NCBI GenBank assembly: GCA_942490825.1
Contig: CALNYG010000013.1
Span: 55,311-119,310, forward strand
Origin: Candidatus Moraniibacteriota bacterium
GTDB taxonomy: Bacteria; Patescibacteriota; Minisyncoccia; Moranbacterales; GCA-2747515
Length of the DNA: 64,000 nucleotides
Reading direction: 5' to 3'
In this document: positions 27,586-63,265 of the stretch, one piece after another
How the letters are laid out: the number at the start of each line of letters is the position of its first letter
How positions within the stretch are numbered: position 1 is the first letter of the stretch
Made by a program: the position numbers and the translations under genes
The notes under the pieces: generated by a model
Seen by the model: the letters and a program-made list of their open reading frames with translations, nothing else
Told to the model about the DNA's origin: nothing
The model's database searches: none

Positions 27586-30039
27586 ATGACTAATTTAAGA
27601 AAAAATGAAGCAAAAGGAGATATAAATTTATTTAATTTTATCAAAGAAAATAGAATTTACAGTAAAGATTGGACTGTTCAAAAGCAAAATAATAAATTTA
27701 TTCAAGAAATTTTAGATAAAACTAGTAAAAAGGGTAATGGAAATAAAGGTTATCCAGATTTGATTTACGTTAATGAAAATAAAAAATTATTAATTTTAAT
27801 TGAGAATAAAGATCAAATAAAAAGTCATGTTTCTAAAAATGAAGATAATCCTGTGGATTTTGCTGTTGATGGAATAAAGCATTATTTATCTTTTTTTACT
27901 GATGATAAATTATTGGAAGAGAAAGAAACCATTAAAAAATATTTTAAAGATTGGAAGATAATCGGAATTGCTTTTTCGGGAGATATTAATGATGAATATA
28001 ATCATAGACTAGATACATATGTTATTGAAGGTAATAATGTTAAAAATATTAACAAAAATGAAATTTTAGACGAAGAGGATTACTTGGCTTTTTTTGAGAA
28101 CGTCGATTTAGAAAAGATAGCTAATGATATTTCAAAATCTTCAAGTGAGATCAATACTTTGTTAAGAAATTTAGACTCACAGAAAAGACCTGTGCTTTTG
28201 AGTGCTTTAATGGTTTGTTTGTTTGAAAAGCCTACTTTTAGAAACTCTTTTAGAGAAAATTATTCAAATTATGATACTGATTATATTATTTCTAATATAC
28301 CACTTACAGTTGAAAAAATTCTTAAAAGTGAGAATATAACTCAGGAAAAAATAAATGTTCTTATAAATGAGTTAGCTTTCATGAAGACAGATAAGGATTT
28401 AAATGACACTGATATTTTAAAAGATATTTTAGTTGAATTGCAAGATAATGTTATTCCTCTTTTTGATAAAAAAACAAATTATGATATTATTGGAAAATTT
28501 TATGAGGAATTTTTAAGATATGCAGGAATTACAAATGTTAAAAAAGGTATTGTATTAACTCCAAATCACATTGCTACGTTATTTACAGAATTAATTGATA
28601 TAAAAACTGATGATATTTTTTTTGATCCAGCTTGTGGGACGGGAGCTTTTTTGATTGCGGGAATGAATAAACTTATTGATAAAATCAATAATTCTAGTTT
28701 AGTTGATAAGCAAGATAGAATTAAGAATATAAAAAAGAAACAGCTTATCGGATTTGAAAAAAGTAGTACAATGTATTCTTTGGCAATTTCAAATATGCTT
28801 TTTCGAGGAGATGGAAAATCTCAAATTTTTAACGAAGACTTTTTTTCAGAAGAGTCTAAAAAAGTTTTGAAAAATTTAAAGCCTACAATTGGTTTTGTTA
28901 ACCCTCCATACAGTGGCAAAGATAACAAAAAAAATCCTACAAAAAAAGAAATTCAATTTTTGGAGTTAATGTTAGATAATTGTAGTAGATATGGAATTAT
29001 TATCGCTCCACTTTCGACTTTTTTTAAGGATGAAAATTACAGAAATAGGATTTTAACAAAACATACTTTGAAGTACATGATTAATATGCCAAGTGATTTG
29101 TTTCAACCAAATGCTTCAGCTCCTACAGCAATTGCAGTTTTTGAAACAAATGAACCTCATGGCGATAATAAAGTGGTATTTTATGATTTGAAAGACGATG
29201 GTTTTGTTTTGTCTAAAAATAAAGGAAGAACTGATGTTTTTAACAAATGGGGCAGTGTAAAAAAAGAATTGTTAAAAAAAATAAAAAATCCATATGAAAA
29301 TGAAGATTTATTAAAATTGGTATATAAAAAAATAACAGGGGACGATGAGTGGATTATTCAAGCTCATTCAAAAAATAATTATAATGATCTAAATAACGTA
29401 AATTTTGATAAAAATTTAAAAAAGTTTTTAATATTTTATTTTAGACATCGTCTAAATTTAATTAATAAAAAAATTGATGAAATTACTTTAGTGGATATTT
29501 TTCGTAAAAATGGATTATCTAGTAATTCAATTTTAGATAATCATCTCGAATTAAATACAGACACATGGAAAGAATTTAGTTTGACAGATGTTTTTTCTCT
29601 TTCGTTAGGTAAGCCAATTCATAAAATACAAATATTTGAATCAGTTGATGATGGAGTTACTCCGTATATAACAAGAACTGCAAAAAACAATGGGACAGAG
29701 TTATTTTTGGATTCAAGTAATTTAGGAGATAAGGTGTCTAAAGGTAATTGCATTACTATTGGGGCTGAAGGCTTGAAATCATTCTATCAAAAAGAGGATT
29801 TTTTGACGGGTAATAAAATTAACATATTAAGAAATAAAGAAATTAATTTACACAGGGCTTTGTTTATTTGTACAGTTTTAGATTTTATAATAGAAGAAAA
29901 ATATACTTATGGAAGAGCTGTTGTAAAAAACAGATTGGAGAATGAAAAAATAAAACTTCCAGTAGATAAAAATGGAAATCCAGATTGGCAGTTTATGGAA
30001 GATTATATAAAATCATTGCCTTATTCTTCAAGTTTATAA
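27586..30039 (+). CDS. single-chain restriction-modification-specificity enzyme (Type IIG-like: PD-(D/E)xK nuclease + N6-adenine methyltransferase + HsdS-like TRD)
   Basis: N-terminus GYPDLIY...LLILIENKD (PD...ExK). FDPACGTGAFL (SAM motif I) precedes VNPPYSG (motif IV). The C-terminal ~180 aa (KEFSLTDVFSLSLGKPI...) resemble one type I S-subunit target-recognition domain. Confidence 0.7.
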   Translation: MTNLRKNEAKGDINLFNFIKENRIYSKDWTVQKQNNKFIQEILDKTSKKGNGNKGYPDLIYVNENKKLLILIENKDQIKSHVSKNEDNPVDFAVDGIKHYLSFFTDDKLLEEKETIKKYFKDWKIIGIAFSGDINDEYNHRLDTYVIEGNNVKNINKNEILDEEDYLAFFENVDLEKIANDISKSSSEINTLLRNLDSQKRPVLLSALMVCLFEKPTFRNSFRENYSNYDTDYIISNIPLTVEKILKSENITQEKINVLINELAFMKTDKDLNDTDILKDILVELQDNVIPLFDKKTNYDIIGKFYEEFLRYAGITNVKKGIVLTPNHIATLFTELIDIKTDDIFFDPACGTGAFLIAGMNKLIDKINNSSLVDKQDRIKNIKKKQLIGFEKSSTMYSLAISNMLFRGDGKSQIFNEDFFSEESKKVLKNLKPTIGFVNPPYSGKDNKKNPTKKEIQFLELMLDNCSRYGIIIAPLSTFFKDENYRNRILTKHTLKYMINMPSDLFQPNASAPTAIAVFETNEPHGDNKVVFYDLKDDGFVLSKNKGRTDVFNKWGSVKKELLKKIKNPYENEDLLKLVYKKITGDDEWIIQAHSKNNYNDLNNVNFDKNLKKFLIFYFRHRLNLINKKIDEITLVDIFRKNGLSSNSILDNHLELNTDTWKEFSLTDVFSLSLGKPIHKIQIFESVDDGVTPYITRTAKNNGTELFLDSSNLGDKVSKGNCITIGAEGLKSFYQKEDFLTGNKINILRNKEINLHRALFICTVLDFIIEEKYTYGRAVVKNRLENEKIKLPVDKNGNPDWQFMEDYIKSLPYSSSL

Positions 30040-30040
30040 C

Positions 30041-30304
30041 ATGACCTACTACGTCTACATCCTAAAATGTTCCGACCAAACACTCTACACAGGAATCACC
30101 ACAGACCCAAAACGCCGAATCCATGAACACAATAATTCAAATAAACTAGGCGCAAAATACACCCGACCCAGACGCCCCGTAAAACTAGTCTACACCAAAA
30201 AATACCCCACACGCTCAGAAGCAACTAAAGAAGAGATACGAATAAAAAAACTCTCACGTAAACAGAAAGAATCGCTAATAAGCTCATCTAAAAGCTCTTT
30301 TTAA
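30041..30304 (+). CDS. GIY-YIG nuclease family protein (UPF0213-like)
   Basis: YYVYILKCSDQTLYTGITTDPKRRIHEHN...R...E. ATG lies 1 nt after the stop of the R-M gene. Confidence 0.8.
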   Translation: MTYYVYILKCSDQTLYTGITTDPKRRIHEHNNSNKLGAKYTRPRRPVKLVYTKKYPTRSEATKEEIRIKKLSRKQKESLISSSKSSF

Positions 30305-30406
30305 GAAAATGACTATTATAAATAGTTAGACAGTTTTCAAAACAAAAACTATTGCTTTTTTTTCTTTACTATAGTATATTCAAGTTATTATAATTTAAAA
30401 AAATAA

Positions 30407-59676: not shown

Positions 59677-61371
59677 ATGGATAAAACAACCTTTAAATTC
59701 CCAAGTCCAAAGACAACCGTGCCGAGTGAAAAAAAAGCACAAAGAATGTTGGAAGTAATTCCAGCCATTTTAACATGGTCAACTTTAATCGGAATGGTCG
59801 TTTTTTCTTATCTACTGCCAGTATGGATGGCAGTTTTTATAATTGCTTTTGATATATATTGGATTCACAGAACTATTTTCATTTCTTATTATTCAGTCAA
59901 GGCTTATTTTCAGTTGAAAGAAGGTCAGAGAATAGATTGGTTTGAGAGGTGTTCACATGTAAATGAAGTGGAAGATTACAAACAGGAAATTGCCAAAAGA
60001 ATTGTTGATAATGAAAATTTATTAGCAATGATTCATCGTAAAAAATATAAAAAAGAATTAAAACAAGCTATTGATTCAGACAGGAAGTTTCTACAAGAAT
60101 TGAAAAAAATTAACGGTGAAGACGTGATGGATTGGCGGGATATTATTCATGTAGTAGCTTTGCCTACAGCCATAGAGAATGCGGAAAATATTGATCCTGC
60201 TATTGAATCTATTCAAAATAGTATTTTTCCAAATGAACAAATCATTATTCTTTTAGCAACAGAGGAGCGTGAAGATGAGGAAAAACGTATGAAAAAAGTT
60301 AATTTTTTGAAAGAGAAATACGAGGGAGTTTTTAAGGATTTTATAGTTACAACTCATGAAGTGGCTGATGGCGAAATGAAATGTAAGGCTTCTAATATGA
60401 CTTATGCAGCTAGAAAACTTCAAAAATATTTTGATGAAAATGATATTGATTATGAGCGTGTAATCCTTTCTAATTTCGATTGTGAGACTATTACTCATCC
60501 TCAATTTTTAGCAGCTTTAACTTATGCTTACATTATTGAGCCCGATCGATTAAAAAGGGCATATCAGCCAATCCCTCTTTATCATAATAATATTTGGGAC
60601 ACAAATGCTTTTGTTCGAGTGATTGTAACTAGTTCTAGTTTTTGGCATATGTTTCAAACTACTCGAAAAGAAATGGTTACTTTTTCTTCTCATTCAGAAC
60701 CTTTTGCGACTTTAGTTAAATTTGATTTTTGGCCGGTTAATATGATCAGTGAGGACTCAATTATTTATTGGAAGGGTTATAGTTATTATAATAGCGAATA
60801 TTATGTTCGACCAATTCATCTACCAGTTTCAATGGATGCTGTTTTAGCGGAAACTTATTGGGAAACTCTTAAAAATCAGTATAAACAAAAGCGTCGTTGG
60901 GCGTATGGTATTGAGAATTTCCCGATTATTATGCGAGCTATTTGGCCAAATAAAAAAATTAAATTATTCGAAAAATTGCGAGTGGCTTTCGAGATGTTAG
61001 AAGGTCATCATTCATGGGCAACAGCTCCATTTATTTTAGCTTTATTAGGATGGTTACCTTTAATTTTTGGTGGATCAGAATTTAATCAGAGTACACTTGC
61101 TCATAACCTGCCGTTGATTACTCGTTTGTTAATGACTTTAGCGATGAGTGGTTTAATTGTTTCAGTGGCACTTTCATTCTTTCTTTTGCCTAAGCGACCT
61201 GAACATCATTCACGAAAACGATATATTTATATGATGTTGCAGTGGCTTTTAGTTCCAATTATTGCACCAACTTTAGGAGCGATGCCAGCGATTGAATCTC
61301 AAACTAGAATTTTATTTAAAAAATATTTTACGGAATTTTGGGTTACAGATAAGATTAAAAAGAAACAATAG
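59677..61371 (+). CDS. membrane-embedded family 2 glycosyltransferase (processive synthase-like)
   Basis: N- and C-terminal TM bundles around a cytoplasmic GT-A-like region. QKRRWAYG matches the Q(Q/R)xRW motif of cellulose/chitin/hyaluronan-type synthases. Confidence 0.6.
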   Translation: MDKTTFKFPSPKTTVPSEKKAQRMLEVIPAILTWSTLIGMVVFSYLLPVWMAVFIIAFDIYWIHRTIFISYYSVKAYFQLKEGQRIDWFERCSHVNEVEDYKQEIAKRIVDNENLLAMIHRKKYKKELKQAIDSDRKFLQELKKINGEDVMDWRDIIHVVALPTAIENAENIDPAIESIQNSIFPNEQIIILLATEEREDEEKRMKKVNFLKEKYEGVFKDFIVTTHEVADGEMKCKASNMTYAARKLQKYFDENDIDYERVILSNFDCETITHPQFLAALTYAYIIEPDRLKRAYQPIPLYHNNIWDTNAFVRVIVTSSSFWHMFQTTRKEMVTFSSHSEPFATLVKFDFWPVNMISEDSIIYWKGYSYYNSEYYVRPIHLPVSMDAVLAETYWETLKNQYKQKRRWAYGIENFPIIMRAIWPNKKIKLFEKLRVAFEMLEGHHSWATAPFILALLGWLPLIFGGSEFNQSTLAHNLPLITRLLMTLAMSGLIVSVALSFFLLPKRPEHHSRKRYIYMMLQWLLVPIIAPTLGAMPAIESQTRILFKKYFTEFWVTDKIKKKQ

Positions 61372-61465
61372 GTTTGTATTTTTTGTTAGTGTCGTTATTT
61401 TGATGCGAAAAAACTCAGTAAGTTTTTTTATTATTTTAGTTTTAAATTTTAATGATATTTTTTGG

Positions 61466-61521
61466 GGGATTCTTCACTTCATAAATTTATCTATGTTAAA
61501 TTTATTACGTTCAGAATGACA
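61466..61521 (+). repeat. ~56-nt intergenic element, copy A
   Basis: GGGATTCTTCACTTCATAA...TTCAGAATGACA. Its termini are identical to the reverse complement of 62644-62700. Confidence 0.75.
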
Positions 61522-61575
61522 GGTGACTTAAGGGTTTTAAATTTCATAAATCTTAAATCGTAAATCTTCAGGGGT

Positions 61576-62609
61576 ATGTTTCAATTTTACGGATTACCAT
61601 TCGTGATTTCTTTTTTTATTTCAATATCTTTTTGCTTTGTTTTAGTTTATTTTTTTAAAAAAAATAATTGTCAGAATGTTCGCGAAAGCGTAAGGCATAT
61701 TCATGACAATAAACAAATTTCGCGTTTCGGTGGAGCAACGATTATTTTTTCATTTGTTTTAATTTTATTTTTAAATAAAGATATAGTTTTTGATCATCTA
61801 ACTTTAGTAATGTTGATTGGGTTGGTGATAATTTTTATTTTAGGTGTGATTGATGATGTTTGGGAACTAAATTGGAAAATTCAACTTTTTTTTCAAATCA
61901 TAATTATTTTTTTGATTTTTCATTATGGTATCCAAATTGAATTTATTACAAATCCTTTTGGTGGGTTAATTCTATTTAATTCATTAGTTAGCTTTATTTT
62001 TACTTTAATTTGGATGTTAGTTATTATTAACATTGTTAATTGGAGTGATGGAGTAGATGGGTTAATGGGTGGAATTATATTTTTTGCTTCAATTGCTTTA
62101 TTTTTTCTTTCTTTGAGACCCGAAGTAAATCAACCTCCATTAGCTATTATTTCAATCGTATTGTCAGGAAGTATCTTAGGATTTTTAGTTTTAATTTTCC
62201 GCCAGCTAAAATTTTTGCAGGAACGGGAGGGTCTTTTTTTACTGGATTTTTAATTGCGATTTTAGCAATTTTTGCTGGAGCTAAAATTGGGACGACTCTC
62301 TTGGTTTTAATTGTACCACTGACAGATGCGTTATTTGTGGCTTGGCAACGGTGGAGAGAAGGAGTGTCTGTATTTGAGGCGGATACGAGGCATTTACATC
62401 ATCAATTACTTCAATTGGGCTGGTCGCAGAGAAAGATCGTTGTTTCTTATTATTTTATTACTGCTGTTGGTGTGGTCGTGGCACTTTCGACTAGTTCGGT
62501 TAATAAATTTTTTGCATTCGTTTTATTTTTTATGGCAGTTTTAATTTTTTGTTTTGTTGTGAATAGGGTAGTTGAAAAAATTGATAATAAATCAATAATA
62601 AATCAATAA
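61576..62609 (+). CDS. polyprenyl-phosphate N-acetylhexosamine-1-phosphate transferase (WecA/TagO/MraY superfamily), interrupted by a -1 frame change in a T4 run
   Basis: NIVNWSDGVDGLMGG in frame 1. From 62190, frame 0 reads FNFPPAKIFAGTGGSFFTGF...DTRHLHHQLL. Track ORFs 61576-62253 and 62301-62609 are the two parts, and the join is at T-run 62189-62192. Confidence 0.8.
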
Positions 62610-62643
62610 GATAAAAAACTAGATAGTTTTAAATAATATAATT

Positions 62644-62700
62644 TGTCATTCTGAAAGAAATAATTTTTTATTTTATAAAAATTATGTAGTGAAGAATCCC
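62644..62700 (-). repeat. ~56-nt intergenic element, copy B (inverted)
   Basis: TGTCATTCTGAA...GTGAAGAATCCC. Confidence 0.75.
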
Positions 62701-62735
62701 AATAGGTTTTTCTGATATTTTTATTTTAAAGTTTT

Positions 62736-62803
62736 GGGATTCTCTGTGGGAGATTATTCACTTCATAAAATTTTTTACAAAAATCTTGTTACGTTTAGAA
62801 TAA
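62736..62803 (+). repeat. ~56-nt intergenic element, copy C (with a 13-nt internal insertion)
   Basis: GGGATTCT[CTGTGGGAGATTA]TTCACTTCATAAA...TTACGTTTAGAATAA. Forms a long imperfect inverted repeat with copy B. Confidence 0.65.
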
Positions 62804-62827
62804 TTATGGTAATCTGAATATATTACA

Positions 62828-63265
62828 ATGAAAAAATATAGAAAAATTTTACTATTAATTTTAGTTTTGATTATTGGAGCTAGTGTGTTTTTTACTTTTT
62901 TTAAAAAGGAAGAAGTCGTTGATAAAATTAAAATAAATGATCTTGAGTTTTCTGTTGAGATTGTTAGTAATGTCCAGGAGAGGATGAAAGGTTTGAGTGG
63001 GCGAAGTGGTTTATGTGAAAATTGTGGGATGTTGTTTATTTTCGATAAAGTTGATCAATATGGTTTTTGGATGAAAGATATGAATTTTGATATTGATATT
63101 TTATGGATTAAAAACGGGGAAATTGCTTATATTGAAAAAGGTGTTTCTCATGAAACACCTGAGGTTGTTTATAATCCTAATGTTGAGAGTGCTATGGTTT
63201 TAGAATTGGATTCTAGGACAGTTGAAGAGTTTAGGATTGAGGTTGGGGATAAAATTGAGTTTTAA
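62828..63265 (+). CDS. DUF192 domain protein
   Basis: Signal/anchor segment, then GLSGR..L....GMLFIF......FWMKDM.F.IDILWI, as in DUF192. Confidence 0.7.
   Translation: MKKYRKILLLILVLIIGASVFFTFFKKEEVVDKIKINDLEFSVEIVSNVQERMKGLSGRSGLCENCGMLFIFDKVDQYGFWMKDMNFDIDILWIKNGEIAYIEKGVSHETPEVVYNPNVESAMVLELDSRTVEEFRIEVGDKIEF

Follow-up and report, generated by a model that had tools for sequence, protein, structure and literature searches.

The closest known system to the repeats described here is that of the repetitive extragenic palindromic (REP) sequences of Enterobacteria, Pseudomonas and Stenotrophomonas, with the associated bacterial interspersed mosaic elements (BIME), REP doublets forming hairpins (REPIN) and REP-associated tyrosine transposases (RAYT), and the architecture and genomic behaviour of the two are the same. 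Both consist of multi-copy, mostly intergenic imperfect palindromes that are short (20-40 nt); in both, inverted doublets that fold into one long hairpin (the REPIN in the case of REPs) are frequent, an associated small nuclease gene may be flanked by the repeats on both sides, and no target-site duplication is left. REPs are confined to a given species or genus. The present repeats were identified in a stretch of 64,000 nt from a Candidatus Moraniibacteriota bacterium (GenBank assembly GCA_942490825.1, contig CALNYG010000013.1, positions 55,311 to 119,310; hereinafter the window), where three copies, denoted A, B and C, are located around a wecA-like gene. These copies are probably non-autonomous palindromic elements, similar to REPs or to MITEs (miniature inverted-repeat transposable elements), that belong to a family associated with GIY-YIG nuclease genes and present in many phyla. 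The wecA-like gene appears to be flanked by the elements rather than carried by them: the doublet formed by B and C, and the arm A, perhaps with a decayed partner, lie in the two gaps of an otherwise compact operon that consists of genes for a glycosyltransferase (GT), the WecA-like protein and a DUF192 protein.

Three palindromic units around wecA

The features of the locus, in window coordinates, are the following (other stretches used for comparison are designated by numbers with the prefix L).

61391..61416, possible decayed left arm, GTCGTTATTTTGATGCGAAAAAACTC, opposite the end of B in the alignment
61417..61465, spacer-like stretch before A, collinear and ~74% identical with the B-C spacer (direct repeats D1 and D2)
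61466..61521, plus strand, copy A, a long-form unit with the exact termini GGATTCTTCAC...TCAGAATGAC, in the GT-wecA intergenic region
61576..62609, plus strand, wecA-like gene (Glycos_transf_4), apparently flanked and not carried by the elements
62644..62700, minus strand, copy B, the doublet's left arm, a unit of the long form whose termini are exact
62644..62803, inverted doublet (foldback) of B, spacer and C, the composite form typical of the family
62701..62749, doublet spacer, 35 or 49 nt long for a start of C at 62736 or 62750, respectively
62736..62803, plus strand, copy C, decayed right arm of the doublet, with two mismatches in the left terminus and the right terminus TTTAGAATAA

Copy A, which reads GGGATTCTTCACTTCATAAATTTATCTATGTTAAATTTATTACGTTCAGAATGACA on the plus strand, ends 55 nt upstream of the wecA ATG, and copy B, the reverse complement of which is GGGATTCTTCACTACATAATTTTTATAAAATAAAAAATTATTTCTTTCAGAATGACA, starts 35 nt downstream of the wecA stop codon. 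The original prediction of a three-copy repeat in which A and B have identical termini around a variable centre is borne out by the alignment, with exact ends of 13 and 12 nt. The common outer end is GGGATTCTTCACT (the 13 exact nucleotides) followed by one differing base and CATAA, so that the outer 19 nt contain a single mismatch; the common inner end, TTCAGAATGACA, is identical over 12 nt, and the AT-rich centres are different. Both copies match the family termini (GGATTCTTCRC ... TCAGAATGAC) in 11/11 and 10/10 positions, and the termini of A are recovered by nhmmer with the short-unit profile at E values of 0.006 and 0.018. The centre of A contains an inner AT-rich hairpin with the arms CATAAATTTA/TAAATTTAT and folds at z = -2.2, and that of B also folds into a hairpin (z = -2.4).

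Copy C is a decayed copy, with 2 and 3 mismatches to the family termini and a centre that shares homology with A and with the right arm of the doublet in L004, a locus of the Moraniibacteriota metagenome-assembled genome (MAG) RS_12_31. Its prediction as a related third copy with an insertion thus stands, but the insertion, which follows GGGATTC in the alignment with A, comprises 14 nt and not 13, and an equally good alignment, in which the left end of C is GAGATTATTCAC at 62750, requires no insertion. Likewise, the predicted distance of 35 nt between B and C is correct if C starts at 62736 and becomes 49 nt if C starts at 62750. With either boundary, the minus-strand B, a spacer of 35-49 nt and the plus-strand C match the inverted '-+' doublets of the family, which have spacers of 16-60 nt. 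The foldback that had been proposed for B and C is calculated at -34.5 kcal/mol, modestly better than shuffled sequences (z = -2.1). In the alignment, the B-C doublet is collinear both with the L004 doublet and with the stretch that leads into and includes A; speculatively, the possible arm at 61391-61416 would place A in a second doublet upstream of wecA, although the short-unit profile search detects no unit at 61391-61416. Units in RS_12_31 (L057 and L004) have centres that are nearly identical to those of A and C. This locus was also recovered from another sequencing run (ERR9669538), in which a contig of 1.1 kb (L001) that is ~99.8% identical to the window spans the 3' part of wecA, B, C and DUF192, with A outside the covered part and with a 2-nt indel in the loop of C. 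Because this independent contig matches, the arrangement from the 3' part of wecA to DUF192 is not an assembly artefact.

The original prediction also placed wecA in a 1.2-kb unit bounded by inverted repeats, to be compared with the same locus in relatives. In the window, the gene for a GT of 564 aa lies upstream of wecA, and this GT places the organism among the Moranbacteria/Moraniibacteriota (CPR). The GT-wecA-DUF192 order is kept, with no unit at the locus, in L120, L122 and L248/L249, as follows.

Window (59677-63265), GT-wecA gap of 204 nt, wecA-DUF192 gap of 218 nt
L120, GT protein 94% identical to that of the window, GT-wecA gap of 114 nt, wecA-DUF192 gap of 42 nt
L122, GT DNA 93% identical to that of the window, GT-wecA gap of 337 nt, wecA-DUF192 gap of 3 nt
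L248 (complete genome CP175956.1, 10001-13150), GT protein 75% identical, GT/wecA and wecA/DUF192 overlapping

The supposedly mobile gene is thus present, without the repeats, in each of the three relatives (L120, L122 and L248). That A and B are mutually inverted and bracket exactly one gene is what would be expected of the terminal inverted repeats of a wecA composite, be it transposon-like, an integron-like cassette or an invertible segment. However, wecA lies between the same neighbours without the repeats in these relatives, with homology continuous through the gene, there are neither target-site duplications nor attC core sites, and the plus-minus polarity of A and B is the reverse of that in the gene-carrying form of the family, in which a minus-strand unit precedes and a plus-strand unit follows the gene; accordingly, such a composite is very improbable. 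The simplest history would seem to be a gain of the elements in the lineage of the window, because the three relatives lack the units and in most places have smaller gaps or overlapping genes.

Several further features of this locus were observed. Compared with L120 and L122, the wecA-like gene has a 1-nt deletion in a run of five T at 62188 (62183-62200), which splits it into open reading frames (ORFs) 61576-62253 and 62301-62609; this frameshift is either real, in which case wecA is a pseudogene, or a homopolymer sequencing error. Synteny past DUF192 is lost in all relatives. In a relative with a 96% identical GT protein, three independent assemblies (L118 6266-6336 and the contig ends of L117 and L119) diverge directly after the GT gene, and one of these runs into an ORF starting with MKIKCPRCNNKKIVKNGKTHAQK, which we take to be the zinc ribbon of an IS1-type transposase. 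Because the assemblies diverge at this point, one of them into the IS1-type-like ORF, the spot after the GT gene would be an insertion hotspot in this lineage.

A covarying hairpin unit dispersed across phyla

Apart from A, B and C, no copies were found in the window by mismatch scans, alignment or the unit profile, but the suggestion that the element is MITE- or foldback-like is supported by the membership of these copies in a dispersed repeat family. In a scan of one genome per species for GGATTCTTCAC, a gap of 25-45 nt and TCAGAATGA, both termini were found exactly in more than 115 genome stretches from at least 10 phyla, among the matches listed, compared with a rough chance expectation of a few tens. 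These matches come from Paceibacterota, Moraniibacteriota and Absconditabacteria (all members of the candidate phyla radiation, CPR), Acidobacteriota, Chloroflexota, Bacteroidota, Ignavibacteriota, Kapabacteria, Nitrospinota, Firmicutes, Caldisericota, Firestonebacteria and Deltaproteobacteria, and include the isolates Chryseosolibacter histidini and Algoriphagus algorifonticola. Bases that the pattern leaves free are conserved as well, namely, C after TCAGAATGA in 131 of 133 matches, GT before it in 112-117 and T after GGATTCTTCAC in 94. With relaxed matching (up to 2 mismatches per terminus), 311 units are detected in 116 sources versus 3 in shuffled sequence. The units are mostly intergenic, with 24% in stop-free frames of at least 150 aa versus 84% of random positions.

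From the window itself, chance similarity might have been suspected: its GC content is 30%, short AT-rich matches are common, and the statistics confined to it are weak (4 matches at up to 2 mismatches versus 1.1 expected). The conserved parts, however, are the GC-containing termini and not the AT-rich centre, and the more than 115 stretches with both termini, together with the conservation of the bases left free by the pattern, exclude chance. An artefact of sequencing, assembly or adapters can likewise be dismissed, given the recovery of the locus from the independent run (L001), the occurrence of units in isolate genomes, the contig-name prefixes of different assembler styles and the match between centres and host GC. 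The unit shares 11 nt (ACTTCGTTCAG) with a nanopore ligation adapter; an adapter origin was considered and rejected because the contigs carry the prefixes NODE_ and k141_, the units are present in isolate genomes and the centres match the host.

The units are dispersed within genomes as well, because four foldbacks of ~230 nt in the Paceibacterota MAG10 lie on four contigs with unrelated flanks, and close Moranbacteria relatives carry units at other loci (L117 614-668 and L120 11321-11356).

The shortest form of the unit, which is also the commonest (82 of the 311 units), consists of 26 nt, GGATTCTTCRC-TNC-GYTCAGAATGAC, and folds into a hairpin with a 5-bp stem, a 2x2 internal loop of T.C and C.T, two further base pairs and a 3-nt loop. 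Among 141 distinct 26-mers, compensatory changes are seen in pair 5-21 (TA 86, CG 26, GC 8), pair 10-16 (GC 80, AT 42), pair 7-19 (TA 113, CG 13) and pair 4-22 (TA 123, CG 8), and the mismatches 8.18 (T.C) and 9.17 (C.T) are invariant. On the opposite strand, the internal loop becomes a tandem G.A/A.G adjoining a G-N-A triloop, and in the G-C variant the result is GCGAAGC, a sequence named among stable DNA 'mini-hairpins' (PMC13037366). Given the covarying stem pairs and the invariant internal loop, selection acts on a conserved fold, be it that of single-stranded DNA, of a cruciform or of RNA. In the long forms, such as A and B, the apical loop is replaced by an extra lineage-specific hairpin of host-matched base composition, and 35% of the long-form centres fold with z < -2.

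Some of these centres contain other repeats. For example, paralogous hairpins of other families lie within the unit's apical loop in L019, L040 and L062; one of the nested sequences, ACCCTGAGCGAAGCCGAAGGGT, has the same plan of stem, GA, GCGAAGC, GA and stem with a different stem, and another, TCCCGA...TCGGGA(C), is found in the loop, sometimes with TTCG or TCCG repeated at both junctions. The loop of the unit thus seems to be a preferred insertion point.

The commonest arrangement of neighbouring units is an inverted doublet, in which a left arm GTCATTCTGA..GAAGAATCC is followed by a spacer and a right arm GGATTCTTC..TCAGAATGAC. This '-+' order accounts for 66 of the 122 adjacent pairs less than 100 nt apart, the others being '--' (26), '++' (21) and '+-' (9), so that the B-C foldback has the most frequent form. 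There are 62 clear '-+' doublets in other genomes, including the CPR loci L004, L018, L002, L013, L072 and L101; the spacers are 16-60 nt long outside Acidobacteria, and in Acidobacteria the spacer is a conserved sequence of 38 nt with the consensus AGAGGGTGATGGC...GGCGAATATTCTCT. Between units 400-3000 nt apart, the order is '+-' in 11 of 27 pairs; two successive doublets produce this order, which is also that of A and B, at a gene-scale distance. The lack of a target-site duplication, noticed originally for the wecA locus, holds for the entire family: the direct repeats beside 92 doublets do not exceed the expected number at any k from 1 to 8. In these doublets, the palindrome reaches 1-2 nt past the arms.

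The covariation, along with the invariant non-Watson-Crick internal loop, is also what would be expected if the hairpins were host elements acting at the RNA level (a terminator, an mRNA-stabilising 3' hairpin, a processing site or another form of cis-regulation, as the original prediction allowed) for wecA and DUF192, with dispersal being secondary or convergent. The tandem G.A/A.G is a stable RNA motif, and REP elements (REP/BIME) are known to be co-opted for RNA-level roles. The positions of the copies fit such roles, with B just past the wecA stop codon and A and C in 5' leaders. In addition, copy C contains the promoter-like hexamers TTTACA and TAGAAT, separated by 16 nt (62774..62801, plus strand, 10 of 12 positions matching) and located 27 nt ahead of the DUF192 ATG; TAGAAT is formed by the right terminus of the unit in its mutated state. 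However, promoter-like sites in this region are no commoner than in shuffled sequences, so that these hexamers are only a lead; there is no intrinsic terminator (a GC-rich stem followed by a T run) in 61300-62900; and the single copies A, B and C fold no better than shuffled sequence (z = +0.27 to -1.44). The Rfam 15 covariance models detect only tRNAs in the window and in 18 unit-bearing loci of other genomes, with nothing relevant at E values up to 10. Moreover, the units have no constant association with any class of genes and are found on either strand, as inverted doublets and in densely packed arrays, and three relatives run the same operon without them. A primary role in RNA is therefore unlikely, although an RNA-level function adopted by the elements is conceivable, and a mobile family of palindromic DNA elements is the preferred reading. 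A single change would turn the family terminus TCAGAAT into a good -10 box, and units could therefore readily evolve into promoters.

Some occurrences of the units differ from the doublets described above. Dense arrays include 26 units within 8 kb in Nitrospina sp. LS_NOB (L028, LFLA01000014.1), four units with a regular period of ~214 nt in L115 and 10 units in the Absconditabacteria locus L046; in appearance, these are closer to satellite or BIME-like clusters than to single insertions. Units are also present in 45 stretches of IMG/VR viral contigs (including L218, L219, L220, L227 and L247, the last one IMGVR_UViG_3300032401_002140 of 55.8 kb), one of which holds at least six copies; no GIY-YIG gene was found beside the units in these 45 loci. 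Phages could have provided a route across phyla, or else these contigs could be misassigned host DNA. The foreign doublet closest to that of the window, in L004 (1825-6331), is located within a cell-envelope polysaccharide cluster as well, between genes that, judging by their translations, encode a Wzx-like flippase and a family-2 glycosyltransferase, with an O-antigen-ligase-like gene downstream; this setting may be a coincidence.

Association with GIY-YIG nuclease genes

The most recurrent ORF family beside the units encodes a GIY-YIG protein of ~95 aa (Pfam PF01541), found at five loci from different phyla with units within ~100 nt of the gene on one or both sides. In the reverse test, 80 metagenome loci were picked solely by similarity to this protein: a unit is located within 200 nt of the gene in 43 of these, and the unit density is 2.84 per kb within this distance versus 0.156 per kb farther away, an 18-fold difference. 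Pairing of the repeats around genes elsewhere, which the original prediction had raised, is indeed observed in 20 of the 80 loci, where units are present on both sides of the GIY-YIG gene. In the typical layout, a minus-strand unit precedes and a plus-strand unit follows the gene, which thus occupies the position of the doublet spacer. The 38-nt spacer of Acidobacteria matches, at its ends, the inner flanks of the gene-bearing copy, as would fit a deletion derivative or an empty homing site. The only Pfam domain in the ~95-aa protein is PF01541, that is, a catalytic domain with a short tail and without a separate DNA-binding domain, and the closest solved structures are those of the UPF0213 proteins 1ZG2 and 1YWL, both uncharacterised. 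No Y1 (RAYT/IS200) or other transposase is recurrent among the ORFs beside units, and a rough tblastn test with an IS200 TnpA probe yielded no match in the window or in ~245 loci. The wecA locus has no GIY-YIG gene beside A, B or C, and hence these copies are non-autonomous.

The GIY-YIG reading frame can enter the right arm, stopping at the TGA of AATGAC (L150), and ORF tails such as DSSLRSE are seen. In addition, ORFs that read through units or doublets cluster across genomes (L041 190-387 and L056 6307-6666, with peptides such as ...SEESR... and ...RMT...).

As has been proposed for REP and BIME in Escherichia coli, the units might be sites for a host DNA-binding protein (a nucleoid-associated protein, gyrase or a recombinase), into which GIY-YIG genes merely home. 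The exactness of the termini across phyla, while centres and spacers drift, is consistent with binding sites, and so is the fixed place of the GIY-YIG gene within the doublets, as expected of a homing target. However, no conserved candidate for a binding protein other than GIY-YIG recurs beside the units, the covariation of the stem points to a folded strand, and not to duplex sequence, as the form that is recognised, and the unrelated flanks within one genome together with presence and absence among relatives would still call for a mechanism of spreading. Host binding sites are thus an improbable explanation, slightly more so than the RNA-level roles.

If, as we favour, the repeats are mobile, they would spread at the DNA level, with the folded arm or the extruded cruciform being recognised by a structure-specific GIY-YIG nuclease that, in the case of A, B and C, would be supplied in trans. 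Two routes can be envisaged: homing, in which a break at an 'empty' doublet would be repaired from a gene-bearing copy, or excision of the whole foldback followed by re-insertion. Repair by homing, or excision and re-insertion of the foldback, would explain why no target-site duplication is left. Locally, the elements might insulate the GT-wecA-DUF192 operon, and copy C might serve as a new promoter for DUF192.

The window contains a single GIY-YIG gene.

30041..30304, plus strand, GIY-YIG gene encoding 87 aa, the only one in the window (PF01541, E = 1.8e-18)

Its product aligns with the unit-associated subfamily with an hhalign probability of 97.8% and 38% identity, and a role as the trans-acting partner of A, B and C is possible, although it lacks the C-terminal NPxWxDL tail of the subfamily and has no units beside the gene. 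A weak 23-nt inverted repeat of 78% identity around this gene (29779-29801 / 30290-30312) was considered as a pair of arms and rejected as a chance match because the left arm is inside the upstream coding sequence. The gene begins 1 nt after that for an 817-aa restriction-modification-like fusion protein (27586-30039), and its GC content of 0.39 and GC skew of -0.42 compare with ~0.28 and +0.3 in the flanks; the deviant composition suggests a recent acquisition.

Several observations weigh against the interpretation of A, B and C as mobile elements dependent on a GIY-YIG nuclease. There are just three copies in 64 kb, all at a single locus, and the only GIY-YIG gene of the window is 31 kb away, lacks arms and is of another subtype. 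Neither a target-site duplication nor any other footprint of transposition exists, and the junctions of filled and empty sites are not readable given that the intergenic DNA of the relatives is unalignable with that of the window. The sample of the genome scan was chosen by exact termini, and the counts are those of the matches listed. The covariation and the conservation across phyla could reflect a host function, as a protein-binding or RNA hairpin, and the GIY-YIG gene may drive the repeats or merely home into pre-existing ones. Even so, we consider the copies to be probable members of a GIY-YIG-associated mobile family.

A broader and more tentative proposal, which we regard as possible although not the likelier outcome, is that the units, the doublets and the gene-bearing copies make up an undescribed superfamily of mobile elements, whose sole protein would be a minimal structure-specific GIY-YIG nuclease of ~95 aa. 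Such elements would have 26-nt hairpin ends that are retained nearly base for base from CPR to Acidobacteria, Chloroflexi, Bacteroidota, Nitrospinota and Firmicutes. They might best be viewed as nuclease-driven 'homing palindromes' with MITE-like derivatives, and would stand apart from the DDE, HUH, serine, tyrosine and Cas1 transposons as well as from the REP-RAYT system. No description of the family was found in Rfam 15 or in the full-text literature that was searched, the cover of which does not extend to subscription journals.

For the wecA locus, the consequence is that an attractive but wrong mobile wecA cassette gives way to a simple reading, namely, that selfish palindromic repeats probably opened two gaps between the genes of a compact operon for the cell envelope in a CPR bacterium and possibly provided a promoter for DUF192. 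If the link to GIY-YIG is causal, the family would represent a type of mobile element in which a structure-specific nuclease takes over from a transposase, and the units would be a concrete candidate substrate for the uncharacterised GIY-YIG proteins of UPF0213/COG2827, for which structures have been solved and no function is known. Furthermore, the units probably give rise to false 'hypothetical proteins' that recur in the annotation of MAGs and metagenomes, through read-through ORFs and tails like DSSLRSE.

Comparison with known systems

Despite the parallels with REPs outlined at the outset, the units differ from these in three respects. The associated gene encodes a GIY-YIG nuclease and not a Y1 HUH transposase, none of which was found in ~245 loci; the sequence of the unit is conserved across phyla; and the conserved 5' GTAG is missing, the units beginning with GGATTC or GTCATT according to the profile consensus. 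All REPs tabulated in one compilation begin with GTAG (PMC2817692).

The family resembles bacterial MITEs derived from DDE insertion sequences (such as Correia/NEMIS, RUP and Nezha) in being small and non-coding, with inverted ends and unrelated flanks, in the capacity to carry promoter-like sequence and in the apparent derivation by deletion from a gene-bearing parent; the arms of the doublet are inverted repeats, like the terminal inverted repeats of MITEs. In contrast to MITEs, there is no target-site duplication, the parent encodes only a GIY-YIG nuclease and not a transposase, and each 'terminal repeat' is itself a structured covarying hairpin. The elements of the IS200/IS605 group and their non-autonomous derivatives, the palindrome-associated transposable elements (PATEs), share with the family the hairpins suited to single-stranded DNA, the lack of target duplication and the nested insertion in hairpin loops. 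The ends of IS200/IS605 elements are asymmetric, whereas those of the units are symmetric inverted repeats, and there is no TnpA (Y1) or TnpB gene near the units.

Two other comparisons concern the nuclease and the folded sites. As with the free-standing GIY-YIG homing endonucleases (the Seg proteins of phage T4 and I-TevI), a selfish-like nuclease gene is found at a defined target position, but the protein has only ~95 aa and no separate DNA-binding domain, and the presumed target is a repeated structured palindrome instead of a unique gene. The attC sites of integrons are, like the units, imperfect palindromes located between genes that fold in single-stranded DNA. However, the units lack the RYYYAAC and GTTRRRY cores (GTTCAGA has C at position 4, and the left end has no RYYYAAC), a cassette array is absent, and the genes between which they lie belong to a conserved operon (L120, L122, L248 and L249) and are not a variable cargo.

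Finally, heterocystous cyanobacteria reportedly contain small dispersed repeats of ~21-27 nt that are nested in one another and in larger palindromes, as described by Elhai and co-workers in 2008. The units of the present family are similarly very small and are nested in larger palindromic elements; to our knowledge, the cyanobacterial repeats are confined to one lineage and have no associated nuclease gene.

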